A stretch of 64,000 nt of DNA. Origin: an uncultured Nitrososphaeraceae archaeon (lineage in GTDB: Archaea; Thermoproteota; Nitrososphaeria; Nitrososphaerales; Nitrososphaeraceae). Below are positions 31,071-64,000 of the stretch, one piece after another. Each line of letters opens with the position of its first letter. Positions within the stretch are counted from its first letter, which is position 1. The notes below the pieces were generated by a model. It saw only the letters and a list, made by a program, of their open reading frames with translations, was not told the DNA's origin and searched no databases. The stretch is from assembly GCA_963825865.1 (NCBI GenBank), contig CAWGVG010000062.1, forward strand, positions 64,001 to 128,000, read 5' to 3'. The position numbers and the translations under genes are program-made.

Positions 31071-31920
31071 TTACCTATAGCATTCAGAAAACATATTTTT
31101 GCGTCCAGATTTATCTCTGTATATCCTTCCAAACTCCGCCATTACAGAGAGTTGTTTTCCATTAAAAACTGTGCCATCTTTACAAACGAGTTTATCTTCA
31201 ATACAACAACTTGCACAAATCCCTATTCCACATTTCATATATCGTTCAAGACTAGCCTGAATGGGTAATGAATACGCTAGAAGCAATATCAAAAACCTTT
31301 TTCATCATTAATTCCGGTCCACAAGTATAAACATATCGAACGTTTCTTATTTAAGATCTCAGTCATGGCATCAGTCGCGTATCCTTTAACTCCATAATCA
31401 CCATCTTCTGTAGCTGACAATTATTTCATGTTTTGTTTCACGCAAGAACATCATTGCTTGTATTTTCAAAAAACACCTTCTCTTTTTGAACTTGCCCCAA
31501 TAATTATAGTAGTGTACAATTTTCGTTTCGTTCAATTTTTGTGGCTAGCCTTAATTAAAGGTACAAGTCCTGTTCCTCCACCAACTAATAGTACTGTTTT
31601 TAGCACTCGATGCCAATTTTGAAATTGATTGCCATAAGGACCACGAATCCCAAGCATCTCACCATTTCGTTTATTGAACAGCGCTGTCGACCCAAATCCA
31701 TGTTTGCGTATTGTGATCAGCGGCCGGTCTTTCTTATCGGACAACCATAACACTCATGGGAACTTCTTCTGACCCCCGGAATCCAGACCATTACGAAACT
31801 GGCCGGGTTTTGCCTTGGAAGATACTATTATCCTTAAAGACAATAGTCTTGACAGTAAGAGTTTCTATTTAGACCCGTTCAATAACAACAGCTTCTTATA
31901 ATGTTAATATTTATGGGCAA
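31071..31920 (-). CDS. pyrK: Dihydroorotate dehydrogenase electron transfer subunit; many frameshifts
   Basis: RGPYGN, GGGTGLVP, CGPE and ERYMKCGIGICASC..VCKDGTVF [2Fe-2S] motif across fragments. Confidence 0.88.
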
Positions 31921-55192: not shown

Positions 55193-56863
55193 GTGGATAA
55201 AACGTTGAATACATTCTTCTTAGTAATTATAATCTTAATCACATTTATGTCCCAATTCTCCTCTTTGATCATACCTCTTCATGCACAAACAGTTGCAAAA
55301 GAACATGGCGCCAATGATAATAGTAATTTAGCGAGTATCGATATCAATTCTGGAATCAAAGTAGCTAGTTATCCTATAGGTGTTGCAGTCAATCCTTCGA
55401 CAAATAAAATATATGTGACAAATGAATATTCTAATACTGTATCTATAATAGATGTAAATACAGACAAAGTTGACGGAACTATTAATGTAGGAAGTTTTCC
55501 ATATGGGATAGGTTTTAACCCTCTCAATAACAGAATATATGTAAGTAATAGAGGCAATGGAACTGTCCCTGGTACTGTCTCTATTATAGACGGCTCAACC
55601 AATAGCCCAATCGCTAATGCCTCTGTGGGGAAGAGTCCTTTAGGTGTTGCAGTCAATCCTTCGAATAGTTTCATATATGTAACTAATTTGGACTCTGGTA
55701 CAGTTTCAAAAATAGATGGCATAAATAATAATTTGAAAAGTACAATAAAAGTAGGTACTGGGCCCTATGGCATTGCAGTCAATCCTATCAGTAATAAAAT
55801 ATATGTAACTAATATTGGAGATAACACAGTTTCTGTTATAAATGGTACAACTGACCAGTTGGTTAGTACAATAAAACAACTACCTACTGGTATTAAACCA
55901 GCAGGTATAGCAATTAATACTTCTACTAATAGGATGTATGTGACTGATCTTAAATCTGGATCTGTTTTTATTATAGATACTTTAACAGATAAGCCAGTCA
56001 ACACTATAAAGGTAGGAAAAATTCCTGCTGGTTTAGAAGTAAATCCTATCAGTAATAAAATATATGTAACTAATATTGGAGATAACACAGTTTCTGTTAT
56101 AGACGGCAAAAAGAATCAAACTATAAACACCATAGCAGTGAATCCAATTTTAAAGGCAAATTTCAAAGACAACGATCCTTTAAAAAATTTACCAGTTAAC
56201 GTCGGATTTCCAGATATTACAAGTTTTGTATCAATCGATCCGGCTACTAATATGGTGTATGTAACAAATACTGCATCCAACACTATTTCAATGATAGACG
56301 GGAATAAGGATGCTGGAGCAGTAAGATTGAATTTCAATATTAATCCGCCTAATTCTGGTGATGTAGAATGCGACGGAGTAAAGAATTTAGAAGGAAATTC
56401 TACATTATATACTAGAGGACAGGTCATTCGATGTGTAGCTAATCCAAATCGTGCATATAGTTTTGATTCTTGGTCTAATATAGCCAACAATTTAAATAAT
56501 CCATTGACTGTTCAGATTTCACAAATTGGAACGCTCACTGCTAACTTTGTTCCAACATATCCTCCAGAAACATATTTCTTTATAATATTGGGAGTTATAG
56601 GCGCTGTGCCAATATTTTTGGGATGGCTTAATAGAGAGAGGCAAAGACATCGCCTCACTAGATACTTGACAAGGATTGAAACCACACATGATAGACTCTT
56701 TGAAGGCAACAAACAGGACTATGTTATGCAGCTACAACAGATAAGTAAGGAAATACTAGATTTATTTAAAAGAGGGAAAATATCTGATTCATATTACAAT
56801 ATTTTATATAGAAAGGCCATGGATTACATATCTTTGGCTTACAGCAGTGACAGAAATACCTAG
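55193..56863 (+). CDS. Membrane-anchored YVTN beta-propeller surface protein
   Basis: Signal peptide, about 7 PxGxAVNP..IYVTN..TVSVIDG repeats, YSFDSWS module, TM helix and cytoplasmic tail. Confidence 0.88.
   Translation: MDKTLNTFFLVIIILITFMSQFSSLIIPLHAQTVAKEHGANDNSNLASIDINSGIKVASYPIGVAVNPSTNKIYVTNEYSNTVSIIDVNTDKVDGTINVGSFPYGIGFNPLNNRIYVSNRGNGTVPGTVSIIDGSTNSPIANASVGKSPLGVAVNPSNSFIYVTNLDSGTVSKIDGINNNLKSTIKVGTGPYGIAVNPISNKIYVTNIGDNTVSVINGTTDQLVSTIKQLPTGIKPAGIAINTSTNRMYVTDLKSGSVFIIDTLTDKPVNTIKVGKIPAGLEVNPISNKIYVTNIGDNTVSVIDGKKNQTINTIAVNPILKANFKDNDPLKNLPVNVGFPDITSFVSIDPATNMVYVTNTASNTISMIDGNKDAGAVRLNFNINPPNSGDVECDGVKNLEGNSTLYTRGQVIRCVANPNRAYSFDSWSNIANNLNNPLTVQISQIGTLTANFVPTYPPETYFFIILGVIGAVPIFLGWLNRERQRHRLTRYLTRIETTHDRLFEGNKQDYVMQLQQISKEILDLFKRGKISDSYYNILYRKAMDYISLAYSSDRNT
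55781..56101 (+). repeat. 60-bp identical direct repeat within the YVTN gene (55781-55840 and 56042-56101)
   Basis: AATCCTATCAGTAATAAAATATATGTAACTAATATTGGAGATAACACAGTTTCTGTTATA occurs twice. Confidence 0.85.
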
Positions 56864-57289
56864 GAGTCTGCTTCTCTTGTCCAGATATGTTTCTTAGGAT
56901 TATTGCTACCAATAATTGGTAACTTACTTATTCCGAATATGCTACACACCAATCTGAGAGTTCATTTTTCTAGCCTGTTAAATTGTCAAGAAATAACTCT
57001 TGATGCAAACAAGAATAGAACCATGACTGATAACAATTTATACTGCTGAGTCTGAGCTTCCGGTAATAGACGAGATATAGCTACATTGTTGTGTTGTTAT
57101 TCACTTTGACCTATTATTTCACTTGTTTTATTATCAGCAGTTTATTTTCTATTGGTTTTTTAATAAAGCAATTTATATTGGATAATGGGAAGGTCTATGT
57201 ACTCTTTTACGCTGCTCGCTAATTTCTACTCAGCCACAATGTTCAACAAATTGTATATATATACTTAATATTTATCAAATATATTACTA

Positions 57290-58509
57290 TTGCCAGAGCA
57301 TAAAGTAAGCTCAAAGATTGCAGTTGTTATTCTTGCTATAGTGGTAGGTGTTATACTAGTAGCGTATTTACCAAATTCATCTTTTAGTCAAGTATCATCG
57401 CCATTTCTTCCAGGAAGTCACAGAAATGCTGCAATAATAATAATAATAATAATAATAGCAATCACACAATTATACATGGCAATAATAATAATAATAATAA
57501 TAAAACATTAAGCTCTCAAGCAGGCAATCTATATTCATATTCTCTAAATAAAAAAGTAATAAACACAGCAAAACCAAAATCATTAGCATCACAAACAAAG
57601 ACTATAGAAGTTACAGCAAACCTTTCTCAGAAAGGGTTAGACAAATTCGGTATAAAGGAAATATATCTAACCAAGAAGGGTGGTAGAGAATGGTATATCA
57701 ATATGGCTGATCCAGGAAATGATCCTATATTTTCTACTGGATTTAGTCAGACCCTCATCAAACAAAATAGCAGTAGTAGTAATACCAATGACAGTCGTGA
57801 TAATGGTAATAATAATAATAATAATAATAATGGTACTAGTTGGAACAGTACTAGTTATTGGCGCATTACTAATCCGCAAGTTAGAATGCATGTTACTACT
57901 CCTCCAGGTTCTGCTCAATGGAAAAATGTAGAGATAACTGGATATGTTAAAGTAAATGCGACAAACATTACTGGAGCCCATCATCACCAGAAAGATATAC
58001 CCAATCATATTGCATGGCTTGCCAGAAGTGGCGTACATACTGACAACGCCCCATGTAATGGCACAGATCTGTCAGGTGGAATACGCGATGATGGTAGTGT
58101 GGGGTGGAAAAAAGAGATATGGTTTACAGGCGGTTATACAAATGAATCTGCTCAAGCCAAACCTACGGATTCAATAGTTGGCAGGTGGATTGGTTGGAAA
58201 GCTGTAGTGTATAACATAAACAATGAGACAGCAGTAAAAATGGAGTCATACCTAGACGATAAGAATAACAACCATTGGGTAAAAGTAACAAACCTTACGG
58301 ATAGCGGTGGATGGAATGCTGATACTTCTGACAAGAAATTCTATAAAGCTAATTGTGGTAAACCCAAAGACTACGTAATAACAAGTTCTGGCCCTATGGT
58401 AATCTTCAGAGCAGATAACATGATATTGGATTTTAAGAACCTTAGTGTTAGGGAGATTGAGCCTCCTCCTCTTCCTACTCATACTCATAAGCAGTACTAT
58501 ACTCAATAA
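57290..58509 (+). CDS. Secreted Trp-rich beta-sandwich (putative carbohydrate-binding) protein with poly-Asn linkers; frameshift near 57430
   Basis: Signal/TM segment in the 57290 frame; the other frame runs poly-N..DKFGIKEIYLTKKGGREWYINM into the 57703 ORF (WKNVEITGY, WIGWKAVVYN). Confidence 0.7.
57432..57830 (+). repeat. Three (AAT)n microsatellite tracts
   Basis: Runs of about 7-8 AAT near 57432, 57481 and 57808. Confidence 0.85.
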
Positions 58510-58760
58510 CATAAGTTCATAGACTTCTAGAGAGAGATACTTGACTATATCCAGATTGAACCGTTTTGTTCTATAATACTCTGCAATAGCCTTCTTCAAA
58601 TCAGTAAGTCGTGGATAGTATTTTGATACTAACAGATCATGCTTTCCCTGTCTTCAACATTCTTCTATTGCATTGAATTCAGGAGATCCCTTAGGAAAAT
58701 ATACAACCCTTAGCATGTTATTTCTCTCTTTTAGGTATGCTCTTACCATCTTACACCGCC
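58502..58760 (-). pseudogene. IS630-family transposase 3' remnant
   Basis: YFPKGSPEFNAIEEC*RQGK..YYRTKRFNLDI; TGA where the conserved Trp is expected; 5' part missing. Confidence 0.75.
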
Positions 58761-58769
58761 ATATCTCTT

Positions 58770-59280
58770 CTCCCGATAGGGGGCATGAATCTCTACCGTT
58801 TATCTTTGTCAGAGTAATGTGGTTACAAAATACCTTCCTTTGAAAAAGTTTTCTCTCTTCAACTCTATCGAAGATTAACGTACTTTGGTTTAAGGCCAGC
58901 TTGTTTTCTGTTTCAGCAAACACTATCGGTTCATCATCTGTCTTAGTTATACAGATTTTAATGTAGTGTGAACCTTTTCCATGCTGTCTGAAGCGGATTG
59001 TAAAACATGTTTAGCCGTTACAAAGTCCACTGCATGAAGGTCAGATTGTGATTGAATGTCTACAAAAAAACCTGTTCCGAGAGGGATAACTCCATGATTT
59101 TTTCTTCAAAAATTCGTATTGTTCAATGTAAGCAAATGTAGCTTCTCGTACTTACAAACCAATATGTGCAGATTCAAGAATCTTTTTTGGTTGACCTGTT
59201 TGAGGATCTATCACATACTGTCCTGTTCTTGGGTCTAAAAGATATTCCTGGCTTAAGTGCTTTTGCTTGAAGAAAATCAT
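58770..59280 (-). pseudogene. Degraded ORF with trypsin-like serine protease N-terminal motifs
   Basis: PLGTGFFV..FVTAKHVL at about 59090-59000; interrupted by stops and frameshifts. Confidence 0.4.
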
Positions 59281-59353
59281 AAACTTCGTCATTAACTCTG
59301 AAACCAACTGGTGTCAGTTTGTTTTTCTTAGGCTTAGTGTTAGGTGTTGACAT

Positions 59354-59843
59354 TTATCACTTTATCACTTATCACGCAAGGTAAATCCGGATTCTTTTTA
59401 AGGCTGAGCATAAAATGCCCTAAAGCGCGAACCAAATGGACCTCAATTGGTATTAATTGGTTCTGACAATGTTTTTTTATGAAAGAAATTCTTCCAGTGC
59501 TGCCTTTATACACTATCTTATATTTTTTGATTTTATAAAAACTATGTATAGAACTGGGGAAAACTGGCAAAAAACAAACTTTTTCTGGTTGACTTTTTCC
59601 GGAAAATTTTGTTATCACTTTATAGAATGTTATCACTAACCAAGGTTCTTATCACAAATACCGGGACTTATCACGCAAATCATGCCTTATCACGAAAACA
59701 CGTCTTACCACCTAGGGTATGAGTTATCACTCTGAAAATTTTTATCACTCTTATCACTCTTATCACGTCCGTTAACTTTATCACAGAAAAATCTTATGTG
59801 ATAATGTAAATCTTATCACGGATCTCATCTTTTTTTGTGATAT
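59354..59843. repeat. TTATCAC heptamer array (iteron-like) in two clusters flanking an AT-rich core
   Basis: 14 exact direct copies, one TTACCAC variant and one exact inverted copy; main cluster periodicity 18-19 bp. Confidence 0.9.
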
Positions 59844-60299
59844 AAGGCATAAGCAATGATTCAAAGTGCGGTAAATGAGTATTGGAAACTAATAGCAATT
59901 GATTCACTTGAAAGTTCTATCAATGCAGAAAGACTGTCAGATGCAGAACAGCCTGTATTAGCATAGCTATGTAATGCTCAGTAAAGTAATCTTGTGATGA
60001 TATGTACTGTTGTTGTCCTCCATACATAAAGGATGCAGGATAATGAGTTGTCCCCGGTAAAGAGACATTATTATTATAAATTAAAGAACTTTCCTCGTAA
60101 CTGCTTATCGCAGCAAAGGCTATGTTTATTGCCTGATTATGTATCTACAGGTAATAATATTAACAATTAGTATTGATGAATCTGTTCTATTCATGATGTT
60201 ACCGCACAAAACATTGATCAGGATTTAATAATAATGTCACCATTTTGGTGTATTGGTCAAGGATATTTTTATATATAGATAGGAACTGACATTAAAAAT

Positions 60300-60623
60300 G
60301 TGCTGCAAATAATAGCTTTAATCTTTATTGTATTCCTTATGGTGATTAACACTTATAGTGTATACGCCCCCGGATATCCTCCCCCTATTCCACCAAAAAT
60401 CTACCAAAAGCCATCTTCAGGGCTTTCCCAATTAGTAAATAAGACCTTGACAAATAGTACGAATAATACTAACGTTACAGTACCATCCTCCGGGATTTAC
60501 CAATTAGAAAGATGTGTACAAGGCAACTCATCTTATGCCATGTTTAAATCATGTTTAGCATCATTGTCGACAAACAACCGAACAGACATAGGCCATTTGA
60601 CTAATCAATCAGCATCACATTGA
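60300..60623 (+). CDS. Small secreted hypothetical protein
   Basis: Signal peptide, Pro-rich segment, N-x-S/T sequons and a Cys pair. Confidence 0.55.
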   Translation: MLQIIALIFIVFLMVINTYSVYAPGYPPPIPPKIYQKPSSGLSQLVNKTLTNSTNNTNVTVPSSGIYQLERCVQGNSSYAMFKSCLASLSTNNRTDIGHLTNQSASH

Positions 60624-60794
60624 AAACCTGCGCGTACTAGGCTCCAGCGATTTAGATGCAAGCCGGTAACTTCTAGAATTAAAATATAGATATAGACTAT
60701 ATGCAACTGCGGCTGGGTCTGTCCTAATACGTTTCATGCTATCCATCATGACTAAGGGCCTATCCCAAAATTATCCTCCTGTAATAGAACCTGG

Positions 60795-60930
60795 CGCGAG
60801 GCGCCATGAATTTCAGACTGACCATGGGTACAAAACTCAATGTGAAATTGCCGGAATGAAGCCAATAAATATAGAAATATTAATGGGGCATTCAGTAGGC
60901 ATCTCTGACTCGTACACACATCACAAATAG
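60795..60930 (+). pseudogene. Tyrosine recombinase/integrase C-terminal remnant
   Basis: RHEFQTDHG-YKTQCEIAGMKPINIEILMGHSVGISDSY; LMGH and the catalytic Tyr region are present, the HxxR arginine is deleted. Confidence 0.7.
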
Positions 60931-61025
60931 GATAACCAAGGTAAAACAATCCGCGATATAGCAAAAGAGGTTAGAATGTCATTCAGGGACATAGTATCTA
61001 TTTTGAATAAGGCTGATAACATCAA
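60931..61025 (+). pseudogene. HTH domain fragment
   Basis: NQGKTIRDIAKEVRMSFRDIVSILNK, in frame directly after the integrase-fragment stop; no start codon. Confidence 0.55.
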
Positions 61026-61130
61026 AACAGCGAATTTTACAAATCTTGATCCTCCCTCGATTATGACGTTACGGTTGAACACTTGAAAGAAAATCCTATA
61101 GAGAAATTGTATTTGATCACTCTGGTATAT

Positions 61131-61998
61131 TTATGTTATTTTATCATCATTATTTTTATTAGTTAAAAATCTGCGCATTATATCAAATACTACAGATGGT
61201 TTCTCAGAAAACGGTGCATGACCTGTATTTTCTACCATTTGAAGTTTGCTGTGTTTTTTGAGTAGTTCATGAAACTTTTCAGAATGTGCAACTGGTATTA
61301 GCTTATCAGCAGCACCACATATGATCAGAGTTGGTATATTCTCAATCCTTTGTAATTCTGATGATTCAATATGTGTTTTTGTACTATTTTCAAAAGCTGA
61401 TTTAAATGCATATTTCGCCCCTGTCAAGTTAATTCTTTTGATAAAACCGTCAACAATAGTAGGATGGAGTAACGCTGGATTTCCAAGCATCTGTTCGAAT
61501 ACATTTTTTACACTTTCAAATGTTGGATTTAATGCAGCATTAAGGTATTGTTCAAGTAGGGGTGTTGGTTCCTTGAGCATTCCAGAAGGGTCTATGAGAA
61601 TAAGCTTTTCTATCAGATCTTGACCTTCTATGGCTACTTTTGGCTATATATCCTCCAAGTGAATGACCTACTATTATTGTTTTGCAACTATCATCATCGC
61701 TATCATCATCATTTCTCCAAATTTGCTTACAATCAATGAAGTCTCTAATGAATTTGCTAAAATACTCTATTGTGTAGTCTAGTGTTACGGGTTTATCACT
61801 ACCACCAAAACCTATGAGGTCAACGGCTACTATTGGATGGAAATATCTGGATAAAGCATCAGGGATATCCAACCATCTATCCGATGATGATCCGAGACCA
61901 TGGATAAATAAAATATTTTTCTTTTTCGAACTATTGCGTTTTTCAGATTTCAGATACCTTATCTCGAAATCATTTAGCATTACTTTATTCTCCTTCAC
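61131..61998 (-). CDS. Alpha/beta hydrolase; frameshift near 61640
   Basis: FIHGLG, DLIGFGGSDKP, GHSLGG nucleophile, GAADKLIP and GHAPFSEKP. Confidence 0.88.
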
Positions 61999-62237
61999 TT
62001 ATTCCACCTAATGGTACGTCGGGTCTCTTGCTGCTATAAATATTTGACGATTGGGTACAAGGAGGAAGTTAAGGCGAAAGAACTATAGCCTCGGAGGTAC
62101 CTCTCCGTTCTATAGTCATAGTTGAACGCGAGAGGACATCTGCTGAAATACTTCGTTTAATGTTTCATTGGTGACTCGGCCGTTAGGAGTATGATCAAAT
62201 CCCTCTTTGTGTCAAGCATTAGCCACTAAGCTTAAAG

Positions 62238-63644
62238 CTAGGCGCCGACTGTTCTGTCATCCTTTTTTCCTCTAGTCTCGCTAATCACCAACTCTAAATA
62301 TTGTATAACTTCGTTATCATCTAACATTGAAGATTCTACTGCTGTTTCTTTTTCCATAGAATCTGCGTGTTTATGGATTAGTTTTACAACCTTTCCTATA
62401 ATCTCTGCGTTCTCTTGTGCATTACCTAAAGTATCTAGCAGAGCATACTCCTTTGCATATTTTCTGGCTAAATGACGCAATTCTGCATCTTGGGCCACTG
62501 ACAGCGCGACAGAGTATATTCCTATGCTAAAAAGAAAAGAAGCAAGCACAACAAAGGCACGTTGGATTGCTCCAAAGGGTGGATAAGAATTGTTGGTTAT
62601 CCAGTTATTGGTCGTTGGAGAAATTAAAATGGTTGAAAATGCTGCTATAATCAAATAGTTAATGATCTTACGAGAAGAGGTAATTTGCCGTCCAAGAGTT
62701 TTTGCTACTAAAATATATGCAAAAGCTATTACAAAATCAGCTACAACCCATCCTGCGGTACCTATTACCCTAAAGATAAGGAAGCTGGGGTCCATATATA
62801 CAAATTCACTTGCAGTTGACTTTAATAATTGAGGAGCAAATATCCCAAATAAAAAAAGTACAGGTGGTAAAATTATAAGTGTCCAAAATGTTGCTCTTCC
62901 TATCTGATCCTTAAAATAACGAAGGAAATATGCAACAGCAACTGTTTCTGCGATAGCAATAGCAGTAACTTGAGGGACAAGAAACCCATAGAGATGAATC
63001 ACAAGTTCTATTCTAGATAAGTGTCTGCTTGCCATAGAATTGCTAGAGTGGAAATTTGGATCTATGGAGGGTGGTCTTGAAAAGACTAATTCCTTTGTAT
63101 CAAATGCAGTAGTAACTGTCACGCTGATGCAAAGGAGCATCGATGATACAGCAAATGCCAATATCATGATATTGTGTCGTTTATTGACACTCGACTTGAA
63201 CCATGACAAGAATTTGTAAGTGCGAAAACCAAAGAACAAGATGGCTACTGCACTTATTAAGACAATTAGAATCAGCAGGTAAGTGCTATATTGTGAAAAT
63301 AACACCATTTCAACAATGATAGCTCCAAAGATGACTAAAAGTGCATAAAGAAAAATAGGTGTTGCCTTGTACAGCCTATTAAAAAACGAAGGAGCCTCAA
63401 GGTTTTTGCGCAATGCAACCATATAATCTCTAAGGGCATACAGACCTGCAAAAAATACAGTGATACTCATTGTTATAAATAATATTACACCAAAAGAAGA
63501 ATTAAGAGGCTTTCCCAAAACGTCAAGAAAGGTGCCAAAGATTACATCGGTAATTATTATGGCCCAAGCAATAAACGTCATCAAATAAGTTTTTTTGTTG
63601 ATGATACTTGTAGTGACTATCAACGGTATTTTTGTAGTCGACAC
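62238..63644 (-). CDS. Multi-pass membrane protein (about 10 TM) with cytoplasmic C-terminal tail
   Basis: Many hydrophobic helices; SYPPFG and SVAQDAELR..LGNAQ..VIQYLELVISE tail. Confidence 0.75.
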   Translation of the reverse strand: MSTTKIPLIVTTSIINKKTYLMTFIAWAIIITDVIFGTFLDVLGKPLNSSFGVILFITMSITVFFAGLYALRDYMVALRKNLEAPSFFNRLYKATPIFLYALLVIFGAIIVEMVLFSQYSTYLLILIVLISAVAILFFGFRTYKFLSWFKSSVNKRHNIMILAFAVSSMLLCISVTVTTAFDTKELVFSRPPSIDPNFHSSNSMASRHLSRIELVIHLYGFLVPQVTAIAIAETVAVAYFLRYFKDQIGRATFWTLIILPPVLFLFGIFAPQLLKSTASEFVYMDPSFLIFRVIGTAGWVVADFVIAFAYILVAKTLGRQITSSRKIINYLIIAAFSTILISPTTNNWITNNSYPPFGAIQRAFVVLASFLFSIGIYSVALSVAQDAELRHLARKYAKEYALLDTLGNAQENAEIIGKVVKLIHKHADSMEKETAVESSMLDDNEVIQYLELVISETRGKKDDRTVGA

Positions 63645-63671
63645 GTCATTATATACTCTCCTATATGCGTT

Positions 63672-63908
63672 TCAGCAAATTGCCCGTGAAAATGTCACGT
63701 TATCGATATCAAAAGATATGTCTTTTGAAACAAGGGGTAGTTCTTGTCGTTGTTGCTGTTGTGCTATTGCAGCCTGATTTTGGTTTAATAACATTAATGA
63801 GCTAAGAAAAAATACGCCGGTAGCAACAATAAGAATGGTAAGAGACATTATTGCTGTCATATACAATGAAAGATGAAACGAAGAAGAATTACCTTTTTTT
63901 TCATTCAT
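63672..63908 (-). pseudogene. Truncated N-terminus of a secreted protein, probably a hydrolase
   Basis: Signal peptide plus KDISFDIDNVTFS, then an abrupt stop. Confidence 0.35.
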
Positions 63909-64000
63909 TGCGAAATCTAAGCAGCATTGGTATCTAGTCGTCTTGTCGTTAACTGCATCAATATATTTGGAGAAAATCAGCCAGGGATTATCGAAATGTC

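Follow-up and report, generated by a model that had tools for sequence, protein, structure and literature searches.

Small proteins of the ribbon-helix-helix (RHH) type that act on arrays of short operator repeats are known from several systems, and the particular layout reported here appears not to have been described in soil ammonia-oxidising archaea. It lies in a 64,000-nucleotide stretch of DNA from an uncultured Nitrososphaeraceae archaeon, called the window throughout, and comprises a distal array of the heptad TTATCAC, a conserved spacer, three proximal heptads and a small minus-strand gene for an RHH-like protein that probably binds these heptads. G000 denotes this genome assembly, C62 the contig of the window, and C10, C14, C15, C30, C33, C42 and so on its other contigs.

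The closest analogue is the omega/WATCACW system of plasmid pSM19035, which works in type Ib partition and as a global repressor on Firmicutes plasmids. Omega, the ParB of pSM19035, is an RHH protein that binds with one dimer per 7-bp WATCACW heptad, and contiguous arrays of 7-10 heptads overlap promoters (PMC9499535). The archaeal locus resembles this system in its small RHH-type protein (here predicted), in a 7-bp non-palindromic site with an ATCAC core, in the use of direct and occasional inverted copies, in contiguous heptads over its own (here putative) promoter and in arrays of 7-13 units. Among the 16 heptads within 59354-59819, 15 fit WATCAC and 10 fit WATCACW. However, heptads are contiguous in the omega system, while here three proximal ones stand at 7-8-bp steps and the distal ones at 18-19-bp steps with free spacers. 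Further differences are that no delta/ParA partner was found, that the sequences show no detectable relation (no Pfam family matches the module's protein at E<=10), that the host is archaeal and the location chromosomal, and that the module's protein carries an insert of about 25 residues between its helices and a Q-rich tail.

Other bacterial partition systems offer a second comparison. The parH site bound by ParG of TP228 consists of degenerate 4-bp boxes arrayed with AT-rich spacers (PMC3130281). In ParG/parH, as in ParR/parC of R1, pSK41 and pB171, RHH dimers occupy short-repeat arrays that serve as operator and centromere, and the constant word with variable spacers is a feature shared with our locus. 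There, the same operon also codes for a partner NTPase (ParF or ParM), whereas none was found beside the module. The periods of ParG/parH and ParR/parC are 8-11 or 20 bp.

Among archaea, SegB of the Sulfolobales is encoded together with the ParA-like SegA and binds a 13-bp palindrome, TCTAGA-S-TCTAGA, with a cluster of sites upstream of its own operon and others dispersed along the chromosome (bioRxiv 10.1101/2025.02.07.637068). By description, SegB and the module's protein are both of archaeal RHH type (predicted for the latter), and a heptad lattice is not reported for SegB in the accessible part of that source. The autorepressors CopG, MetJ and Arc and the RHH antitoxins share with the module the predicted fold and dimer and a short-repeat operator at their own promoter; unlike it, they use operators of 2-4 sites with no distal 13-unit array, and here no toxin or rep gene follows. 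In the literature on Thaumarchaeota we found no description of the motif, the protein family or the module. In the accessible text of a survey of thaumarchaeal integrated elements, 'RHH' is used solely to label annotations and 'iteron' is confined to the references; the survey's supplementary tables may list elements from related genomes (PMC6563490).

A recurrent module of heptads, spacer and small gene

The distal array (59612-59819) holds 13 heptads, namely 12 exact TTATCAC and one TTACCAC, all on the plus strand except one inverted copy. A motif scan placed the exact plus-strand copies at 59612, 59630, 59649, 59668, 59687, 59724, 59742, 59751, 59760, 59778 and 59813 and the inverted, minus-strand copy at 59798; the variant at 59705 (plus strand) was read from the letters. 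Successive periods are 18, 19, 19, 19, 18, 19, 18, 9, 9 and 18 bp, with the 9-bp steps confined to the triple at 59742-59766. Read in the direction of the minus-strand small gene, the plus-strand heptads become GTGATAA. At the outer edge of the array, a degenerate inverted heptad with one mismatch, GTGATAT, occupies 59837-59843 and is also present in the C33 copy. Tandem Repeats Finder reported no 18-19-bp period in the array; its sole findings were two triples, the 9-bp one and, at 59353-59375, an 8-bp one, and the long spacers are therefore mutually unrelated. An earlier note on this DNA had listed the array positions, the periods and the unrelated spacers, all of which are confirmed by the motif scan and Tandem Repeats Finder; it had missed the three proximal heptads, the degenerate GTGATAT and the adjacent small gene.

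The density of the motif is also unusual. On both strands together the window carries 26 heptads, compared to a mean of 12.83 (standard deviation 3.70, maximum 22) in 100 dinucleotide shuffles, none of which reached 26, and 15 of the 26 fall inside 59354-59819. The whole genome contains 953 heptads in 4.98 Mb. All nine clusters of at least three heptads lie at module copies or fragments or at a solo array on C42, and all 20 heptad pairs spaced 11-12 nt apart are in module arrays or in the C42 array.

A coding tandem repeat was considered and rejected. The list of open reading frames (ORFs) holds none of at least 40 amino acids spanning the array, and contigs from independent soil runs (two records) match 59615-59863 with no gaps; the mixture of 18- and 19-bp steps is therefore not an assembly artefact. 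The pattern that the earlier note had named as fatal to its own view, with periods in multiples of three inside one ORF, is thus not what the sequences contain. Array length does vary in nature: one soil contig has a shorter array, in which 59674 is joined to 59758.

The same heptad, in the same orientation, makes up both the 13-unit distal array and three contiguous copies that abut the ATG of the small gene. These proximal, operator-like heptads (59354-59375, minus strand) start at 59354, 59362 and 59369, at steps of 8 and 7 bp, and end at the ATG at 59353. Two to three contiguous heptads precede the start codon in all nine metagenome loci described below and in the contig copies on C33, C14 and C10. 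Genome-wide, 13 of 14 contiguous heptad pairs sit at module copies, and the remaining one, at C14:104223, looks like a chance tandem. The gene starts 260 bp from the array. The remark in the earlier note that no cognate gene is visible therefore has to be revised, as a candidate RHH-like binder is encoded at this distance, broken in this copy.

Alignments delimit a conserved non-coding spacer (59376-59611, minus strand), which separates the array from the proximal heptads. Measured start to start, the nearest array heptad lies 242-244 bp from the first proximal heptad in five of six copies; in the sixth, locus L032, the homologous heptad lies at 244 bp and an extra one at 218 bp. Between two sequence lineages at least three indel events in the spacer cancel to a net 1 bp. 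The most conserved block of the spacer, TTTTATGCTCAGCCTTAAAAAGAATCC in gene orientation (59389-59415, minus strand), is nearly invariant in the alignment, and its anchor word stands 37 nt from the first proximal heptad in six of six copies. This block is likely the promoter of the small gene, with a putative B recognition element (BRE) and TATA box. Its reading as an N-terminal coding extension was dropped, since the ATG of the block is in the frame of the gene in some copies only. A 17-mer of the block gave 68 matches in genome contigs, about the chance expectation; six of them (L036, L047, L063, L078, L080 and L099) belong to an unrelated dispersed repeat of about 150 bp in one metagenome-assembled genome labelled Chthoniobacterales, a chance overlap.

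Two further features are found in the spacer. A TATA-like box, TTTTATAAAAA (59532-59542, minus strand), keeps its place in 9 of the 10 copies that were aligned; some 78 bp separate it from the last array heptad, and it could be an upstream promoter. A hairpin at 59429-59463 (listed for the minus strand, though it may belong to either) has the stem GAACCAA/TTGGTTC in the window copy and a nearly invariant loop, GACCTCAAT on the plus strand and ATTGAGGTC in gene orientation. In 8-9 of 10 copies, a hairpin around this loop comes out as the minimum-free-energy structure; the z-scores are modest. Five stem sequences occur, each complementary (GAACCAA/TTGGTTC, GTGTAT/ATACAC, GTACC/GGTAC, GGAAAG/CTTTCC and GAATAG/CTATTC), and the copies compared include those on C33, C14 and C15 of G000 and loci L026, L032 and L034. 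The hairpin was judged by folds of single copies and not by a formal covariation count, because the stems are shifted against each other in the MAFFT alignment. Its possible identities include a small RNA, a leader element and a structure in the DNA.

On the sequences compared, array, spacer, proximal heptads and gene form one module, ordered in gene orientation as the distal GTGATAA array, the 242-244-bp spacer, two to three contiguous GTGATAA and the gene. It was found in at least four other places of this genome, with array sizes ranging from 0 to 13. The copy at C33:82340-83616 aligns with 58763-60030 of the window at 96% identity and has its array, with 12 exact heptads, at 83194-83395. 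A whole module is also present at C14:31599-32091 (array at 31580-31749, nine exact heptads), a partial copy with gene start and spacer only at C10:52006-52264, and fragments on C15, at C33:28835-29004 and at C30:6237-6299. The solo array at C42:5326-5437 has five TTATCAC at steps of 18, 19, 31 and 43 bp, with no spacer homology, no adjacent small gene and insertion sequence (IS) fragments nearby. The duplicated segment shared by the window and C33 measures 1.28 kb, starts inside an IS630-type transposase fragment (DDE_3, 58654-58923, minus strand) and runs through the module.

Outside this assembly, a profile search based on a narrow alignment revealed nine loci encoding relatives of the protein in metagenome contigs. 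Four of the nine begin 20-41 nt upstream of the proximal heptads, at contig ends. Five have enough upstream DNA, and a distal array is present in three of these: L026 has four distal heptads, L032 four exact ones plus variants, and L034 two plus a variant. In L033 there is no distal array though its flank is shared with L032, and in L030 homology ends earlier. Comparable arrays and a candidate binding protein thus exist in relatives, whose absence there the earlier note would have counted against itself. A DNA search with 59150-59830 in 40 relatives gave no match outside G000. The three-heptad pattern, searched in 301 genomes of the order, matched only G000 and G174, and a reversed control pattern matched four genomes; the G174 match was discarded as an exact 18-bp tandem repeat of another kind.

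Changes within the array avoid the heptads. None of the three array substitutions between C62 and C33 falls inside a heptad, 2-4 of about 25 do so between C62 and C14 in the homologous part of the array, and the six soil-contig variants listed within the array are all in spacers. Taken together, no more than 4 of 31 changes are in heptads versus 43.5% expected (binomial probability about 3e-4, the events not being fully independent). By this comparison, the heptads are constrained and the spacers are free to drift. It is quite probable that the heptads are binding sites of the module's small RHH-like protein family. The proposal of a protein-binding lattice, already made in the earlier note, has gained ground here: the same heptad also stands at the putative promoter and start codon of the small RHH-like gene, the spacers drift but the heptads do not, and relatives show the same architecture.

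The small protein, its relatives and the predicted dimer

In the window, the gene (59044-59353, minus strand) is a pseudogene for a small RHH-like protein, broken by the loss of 5 bp after 59254 and by the stop codon TAA at 59152-59154. The missing 5-bp stretch is present in the C33 copy and in contigs of three soil runs, and soil contigs have an A at 59153, which we read as restoring TTA (Leu), as in intact relatives. All five gene loci in this assembly, which is 82% complete, are broken or truncated. Ordinary genes of the genome are also split by frameshifts or stops, such as those for an alpha/beta hydrolase (61131-61998, minus strand), Nop5 (C5:131680-132356), asparaginase, Kae1 and a thioredoxin-reductase-like protein. 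Either assembly indel errors or a pseudogene-rich genome may account for this, and so many split genes limit the meaning of pseudogene calls here.

The C33 copy encodes a 68-amino-acid version of the small ORF, and a search with this version retrieved 20 proteins of 47-105 amino acids from soil metagenomes. A profile search among 1.84 billion representatives yielded 22 family members at E<=1e-3, the intact, full-length relatives having 85-127 amino acids. Full-length members have in common a basic N-terminus, then a strand (VGFRV/VGFRC) and a first helix, a conserved insert some 25 residues long and another helix; a Q-rich tail is frequent as well. No longer or fused forms of the protein were found at E<=0.001, which is weak evidence. 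Neither a search with the narrow alignment of the family nor one with P0022 found a locus in genome contigs, and among viral contigs (IMG/VR) there was one weak match, which looks spurious on reading.

The AlphaFold2 model of the intact relative P0003 has a strand-helix-insert-helix order and a mean predicted local distance difference test (pLDDT) score of 71.5, with residues 12-13 and 19-20 in short strands, residues 22-36 and 66-95 in helices, and an insert of 25-30 residues between the helices. Modelled as a homodimer, the protein scored 0.66 versus 0.00 for the best control, with pLDDT of 81-82 and at least 95% of contacts shared by three runs; among proteins of solved structure, 20 of 30 known as pairs and 1 of 23 known as single chains reach this mark. 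In the modelled interface the N-terminal strands pair in antiparallel fashion around residue 17 (contacts 17-17, 19-15 and 20-16), and the second helices touch at 70-70 and 74-74. This corresponds to the layout of an RHH dimer, and the pass may reflect likeness to solved RHH dimers.

A wide fold search with VIA-align, which is independent of Foldseek, was also made. Judged by entry titles and general knowledge, most of the top 27 rows are RHH proteins, including MazE, MatP, KacA, TacA, ParD, the RHH domain of PutA, PrpA, FitA, TraM, NikR and the ParB of pCXC100, with Z-scores of 3.4-5.1, which is the non-diagnostic range of this tool. Look-alikes in the ESM Atlas included MetJ (0.91) and the centromere-binding RHH domain CB_ParB_C (0.90), both to be taken as leads only. 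On the strength of these models the protein is best called RHH-like and assigned to no curated family.

Weak distant homologues were found by profile search in 8 of 237 other genomes of the Nitrososphaeraceae family, from four other genera. Intact examples have direct repeats of another kind ahead of their start codons. At locus L118, GTATATT heptads at 7-bp steps abut the ATG; at L116, four TTTCAYN words (TTTCATG-type) at 10-11-bp steps precede the start codon; and at L117, GTTCAC words do so. Upstream repeats differ in these distant homologues, as expected if each protein recognises the repeats of its own promoter. The other repeats in this position argue against the proximal GTGATAA being a mere ribosome-binding word, and a reading of the proximal heptads as Shine-Dalgarno-like GUGAU words is accordingly disfavoured. 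At L116, L117 and L123 (genomes G016 and G314, of two other genera), a second small gene precedes the distant homologue; its translation looks RHH-like by eye (strand, helix, ...LLNYYE... helix), and direct repeats lie between both genes.

The repeats ahead of the homologues also bear on the idea that the array is transcribed into small RNAs, whether guides similar to those of TIGR arrays (TIGR for tandem interspaced guide RNA), box C/D-like guides or a sponge of GUGAU words. The heptads face one way, a TATA-like box lies in the spacer, and the word GUGAU is complementary to part of the 3' end of 16S rRNA. In TIGR arrays two distinct repeats of 8-12 nt alternate, most spacers have 9 nt, and a Nop-domain Tas gene lies next to the array; the 11-12-nt spacers of the window are near the upper limit reported for TIGR spacers, and in both cases short constant words alternate with variable stretches of 9-12 nt over 5-15 units (PMC12045711). 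Unlike TIGR, the module has one type of repeat, of 7 nt, no adjacent Nop-domain gene, some spacerless units and no box C/D pairing. The gaps of some units are only 0-2 nt, and the sole Nop-domain gene of the genome, a Nop5-like one, is on contig C5. A scan of 56000-64000 against Rfam gave no match at E<=1, and a tRNA scan of the window found no gene; among 24 sequencing runs, no RNA run was listed as carrying the locus. Moreover, the same heptads serve as a contiguous operator-like set at the start codon, and distant homologues have repeats other than GUGAU at the same place. The small-RNA view, which the earlier note had itself ranked as less likely, is in our opinion extremely improbable.

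Putative regulatory role of the lattice and its competitors

Our overall reading is that a heptad lattice is bound by the module's RHH-like protein and has a regulatory and not a segregational role; we would give it a probability of roughly 0.45, somewhat short of even. In a model that builds on the observed anatomy, recurrence and constraint, each dimer would insert a two-stranded beta-ribbon into the major groove at one heptad. The proximal heptads would be located at or just after the transcription start, as placed from the TATA-like block 37 nt upstream, and cooperative binding at these contiguous sites would shut off the protein's own promoter (autorepression). The distal array would provide 4-13 more sites of the same orientation at a fixed distance, acting as an auxiliary operator or loading pad that concentrates the protein and loops onto the promoter. 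It might in addition regulate the upstream TATA-like promoter as well as the hairpin transcript. The array of the window itself would be either a relic or served by a gene copy outside the 82%-complete assembly.

A number of observations weigh against this reading. Regarding the protein, Pfam returned no family at E<=10 for five full-length members and none at E<=0.1 for the window fragments, a sequence search of the PDB gave four matches at E<=10 with no RHH chain among them, Foldseek found nothing in the PDB at E<=0.001, and the Z-scores of the wide fold search stay in the non-diagnostic range. Regarding the DNA, relatives have shorter distal arrays, whose steps are less even and range over 17-27 bp, and L033, a close relative, lacks the array, which is therefore dispensable for the gene. 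The conserved distance behind the looping idea is seen in two sequence lineages only. Furthermore, a step of 18-19 bp is too long for the direct dimer contacts seen at 7-11-bp steps in omega, MetJ, Arc and ParR, so that the distal array needs an extra assumption, either bridging by the insert or the Q-rich tail, or dimers that act singly. Finally, all five gene loci are broken while the 13-unit array is intact, which fits a relic or a different binder equally well.

A decaying relic would mean that the array has no present function here, having been amplified once with too little time for its loss. No gene copy in the assembly is unbroken, the array on C14 has both lost units and acquired mutations in two heptads, and the region is full of IS fragments and split genes. 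However, substitutions avoid the heptads, and spacers that have diverged beyond recognition next to exact heptads require selection, in the past if not today. Closely related soil populations also have intact genes with these heptads. We give a relic very little credence.

The main rival to a regulatory lattice keeps the same binder and changes the role of the array: the RHH-like protein would coat a centromere-like or nucleoid-organising site and segregate or anchor the DNA, with the proximal heptads used for autoregulation only. Precedents for this are the short-repeat arrays of the omega type, which RHH proteins use as centromere and operator (PMC9499535), the parH of ParG, an array of tetramer boxes with AT-rich spacers (PMC3130281), and the archaeal RHH protein SegB with its approximately 35-49 scattered chromosomal sites (bioRxiv 10.1101/2025.02.07.637068). 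Several arrays are likewise scattered over this genome, and the CB_ParB_C lead and the pCXC100 ParB among the fold rows are compatible with such a role. Against it, no gene for Rep, primase, helicase, Orc1/Cdc6, ParA/SegA, Cas or a Nop-domain protein was found among 11 ORFs around the window copy or among 101 ORFs within 8 kb of eight other module or array sites, so no ParA/SegA-type ATPase gene adjoins any copy. Activation of ParA by omega needs at least four gapless heptads (PMC9499535), and the steps here are 18-19 bp. The array is absent from some copies (L033 and C10), and the genes are broken in this genome. The partition site suggested in the earlier note thus loses its usual partner, although an omega- or SegB-like role is still allowed, and we regard a segregational or anchoring function as rather unlikely.

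A bolder version is conceivable, in which the module, as a self-contained cassette, would have spread among the chromosomes of a soil ammonia-oxidising archaeal lineage and would serve for NTPase-independent DNA anchoring or silencing. The protein would polymerise on an 18.5-bp lattice, with about four sites per superhelical turn, and the hairpin transcript would join in the control. We consider this quite unlikely; if true, it would amount to an archaeal chromosome-organising or selfish element of an undescribed kind.

Hardly any experiments have addressed gene regulation and DNA-organising proteins in ammonia-oxidising archaea, and a protein family of about 90 residues paired with an exact 7-bp site is directly testable. 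Nature offers geometries of 7-8-bp, 9-bp and 18-19-bp steps and variants with 0, 4 and 13 sites. The plasmid protein omega of bacteria uses nearly the same heptad, which would mean convergence or very deep homology in DNA recognition by RHH proteins. Should the distal lattice exceed an auxiliary operator, it would be a new archaeal device for DNA anchoring; should it be an operator only, the regulatory reading would still annotate a so far unannotated protein family together with its regulatory DNA.

Genomic context and neighbouring repeats

The module copies have the CCA-adding enzyme, an aconitase-type isomerase, the proteasome, ribosomal protein L44e and Kae1 among their neighbours, along with transposase fragments. 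The archaeal amoA gene is present in the genome and fits its placement among ammonia-oxidising archaea. On C14, the module sits between convergent genes for a RIO kinase and a DUF6659 protein, in a gap of 1.6 kb that measures about 0.3 kb in the nearest genus (G010), and the module is therefore accessory DNA.

Another possibility is that the heptads are end or arm-type sites at which a transposase, an integrase or an accessory factor moves a module of about 0.6-1.3 kb. The ends of Tn7 and Mu carry multiple subterminal sites and can serve as models. The module is multi-copy and occurs in unrelated contexts, among them the enlarged C14 gap, with IS630-type and other transposase fragments nearby, and metagenome contigs break within it. 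However, each module has a single array and not one per end, and no recombinase gene is common to the copies. No terminal inverted repeats or target duplications were noticed where copies diverge, although no dedicated search for them was made. Heptads placed exactly at the start codon fit an operator better, and we judge mobilisation through the heptads to be very unlikely.

The surroundings also speak to the plasmid or virus iterons that the earlier note had put forward, that is, to an iteron-type replication origin of an integrated element. With direct repeats at regular steps next to a small RHH gene, the locus is reminiscent of copy control in rolling-circle plasmids (CopG), and a hairpin with a conserved loop lies close by. 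A weak integrase-like fragment, recognised by eye only, is located at 60736-60930. Nevertheless, there is no Rep, primase, helicase or Orc1/Cdc6 gene near any copy. The direct repeats of iterons have units of 17-22 bp that are largely conserved throughout, whereas only 7 of 18-19 bp are conserved here and Tandem Repeats Finder detected no unit of that length. The copies lie between chromosomal housekeeping genes, and on reading their translations the genes downstream of the small gene in the metagenome loci look chromosomal as well. The family was found in no viral contig other than the spurious-looking IMG/VR match. An iteron origin is in our view highly improbable.

Some minor observations concern the rest of the region and genome. 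The integrase-like fragment at 60736-60930 (plus strand) is a 64-amino-acid ORF whose C-terminus resembles the end of a tyrosine recombinase by eye, with no Pfam match at E<=0.1. Next to the module, a short dispersed repeat at 59952-60090 recurs on at least six other contigs (C7, C12, C13, C37, C54 and C60) at 72-96% identity and may be a miniature inverted-repeat transposable element or an IS end. Two more families of short-motif arrays were seen. The motif ATTTGAC occurs in 6-7 copies at 9-21-bp steps with unlike spacers at C21:173218-173290, in inverted orientation at C22:88127-88199 and as a perfect 11-bp tandem at C60:168606-168667. The third family, built on GTTAACA with its palindromic core, has 6-7 copies at 12-44-bp steps at C26:6416-6547 and C30:4204-4338, which are inverted homologues, and the array on C30 is located about 1.9 kb from the TTATCAC-module fragment at C30:6237-6299.

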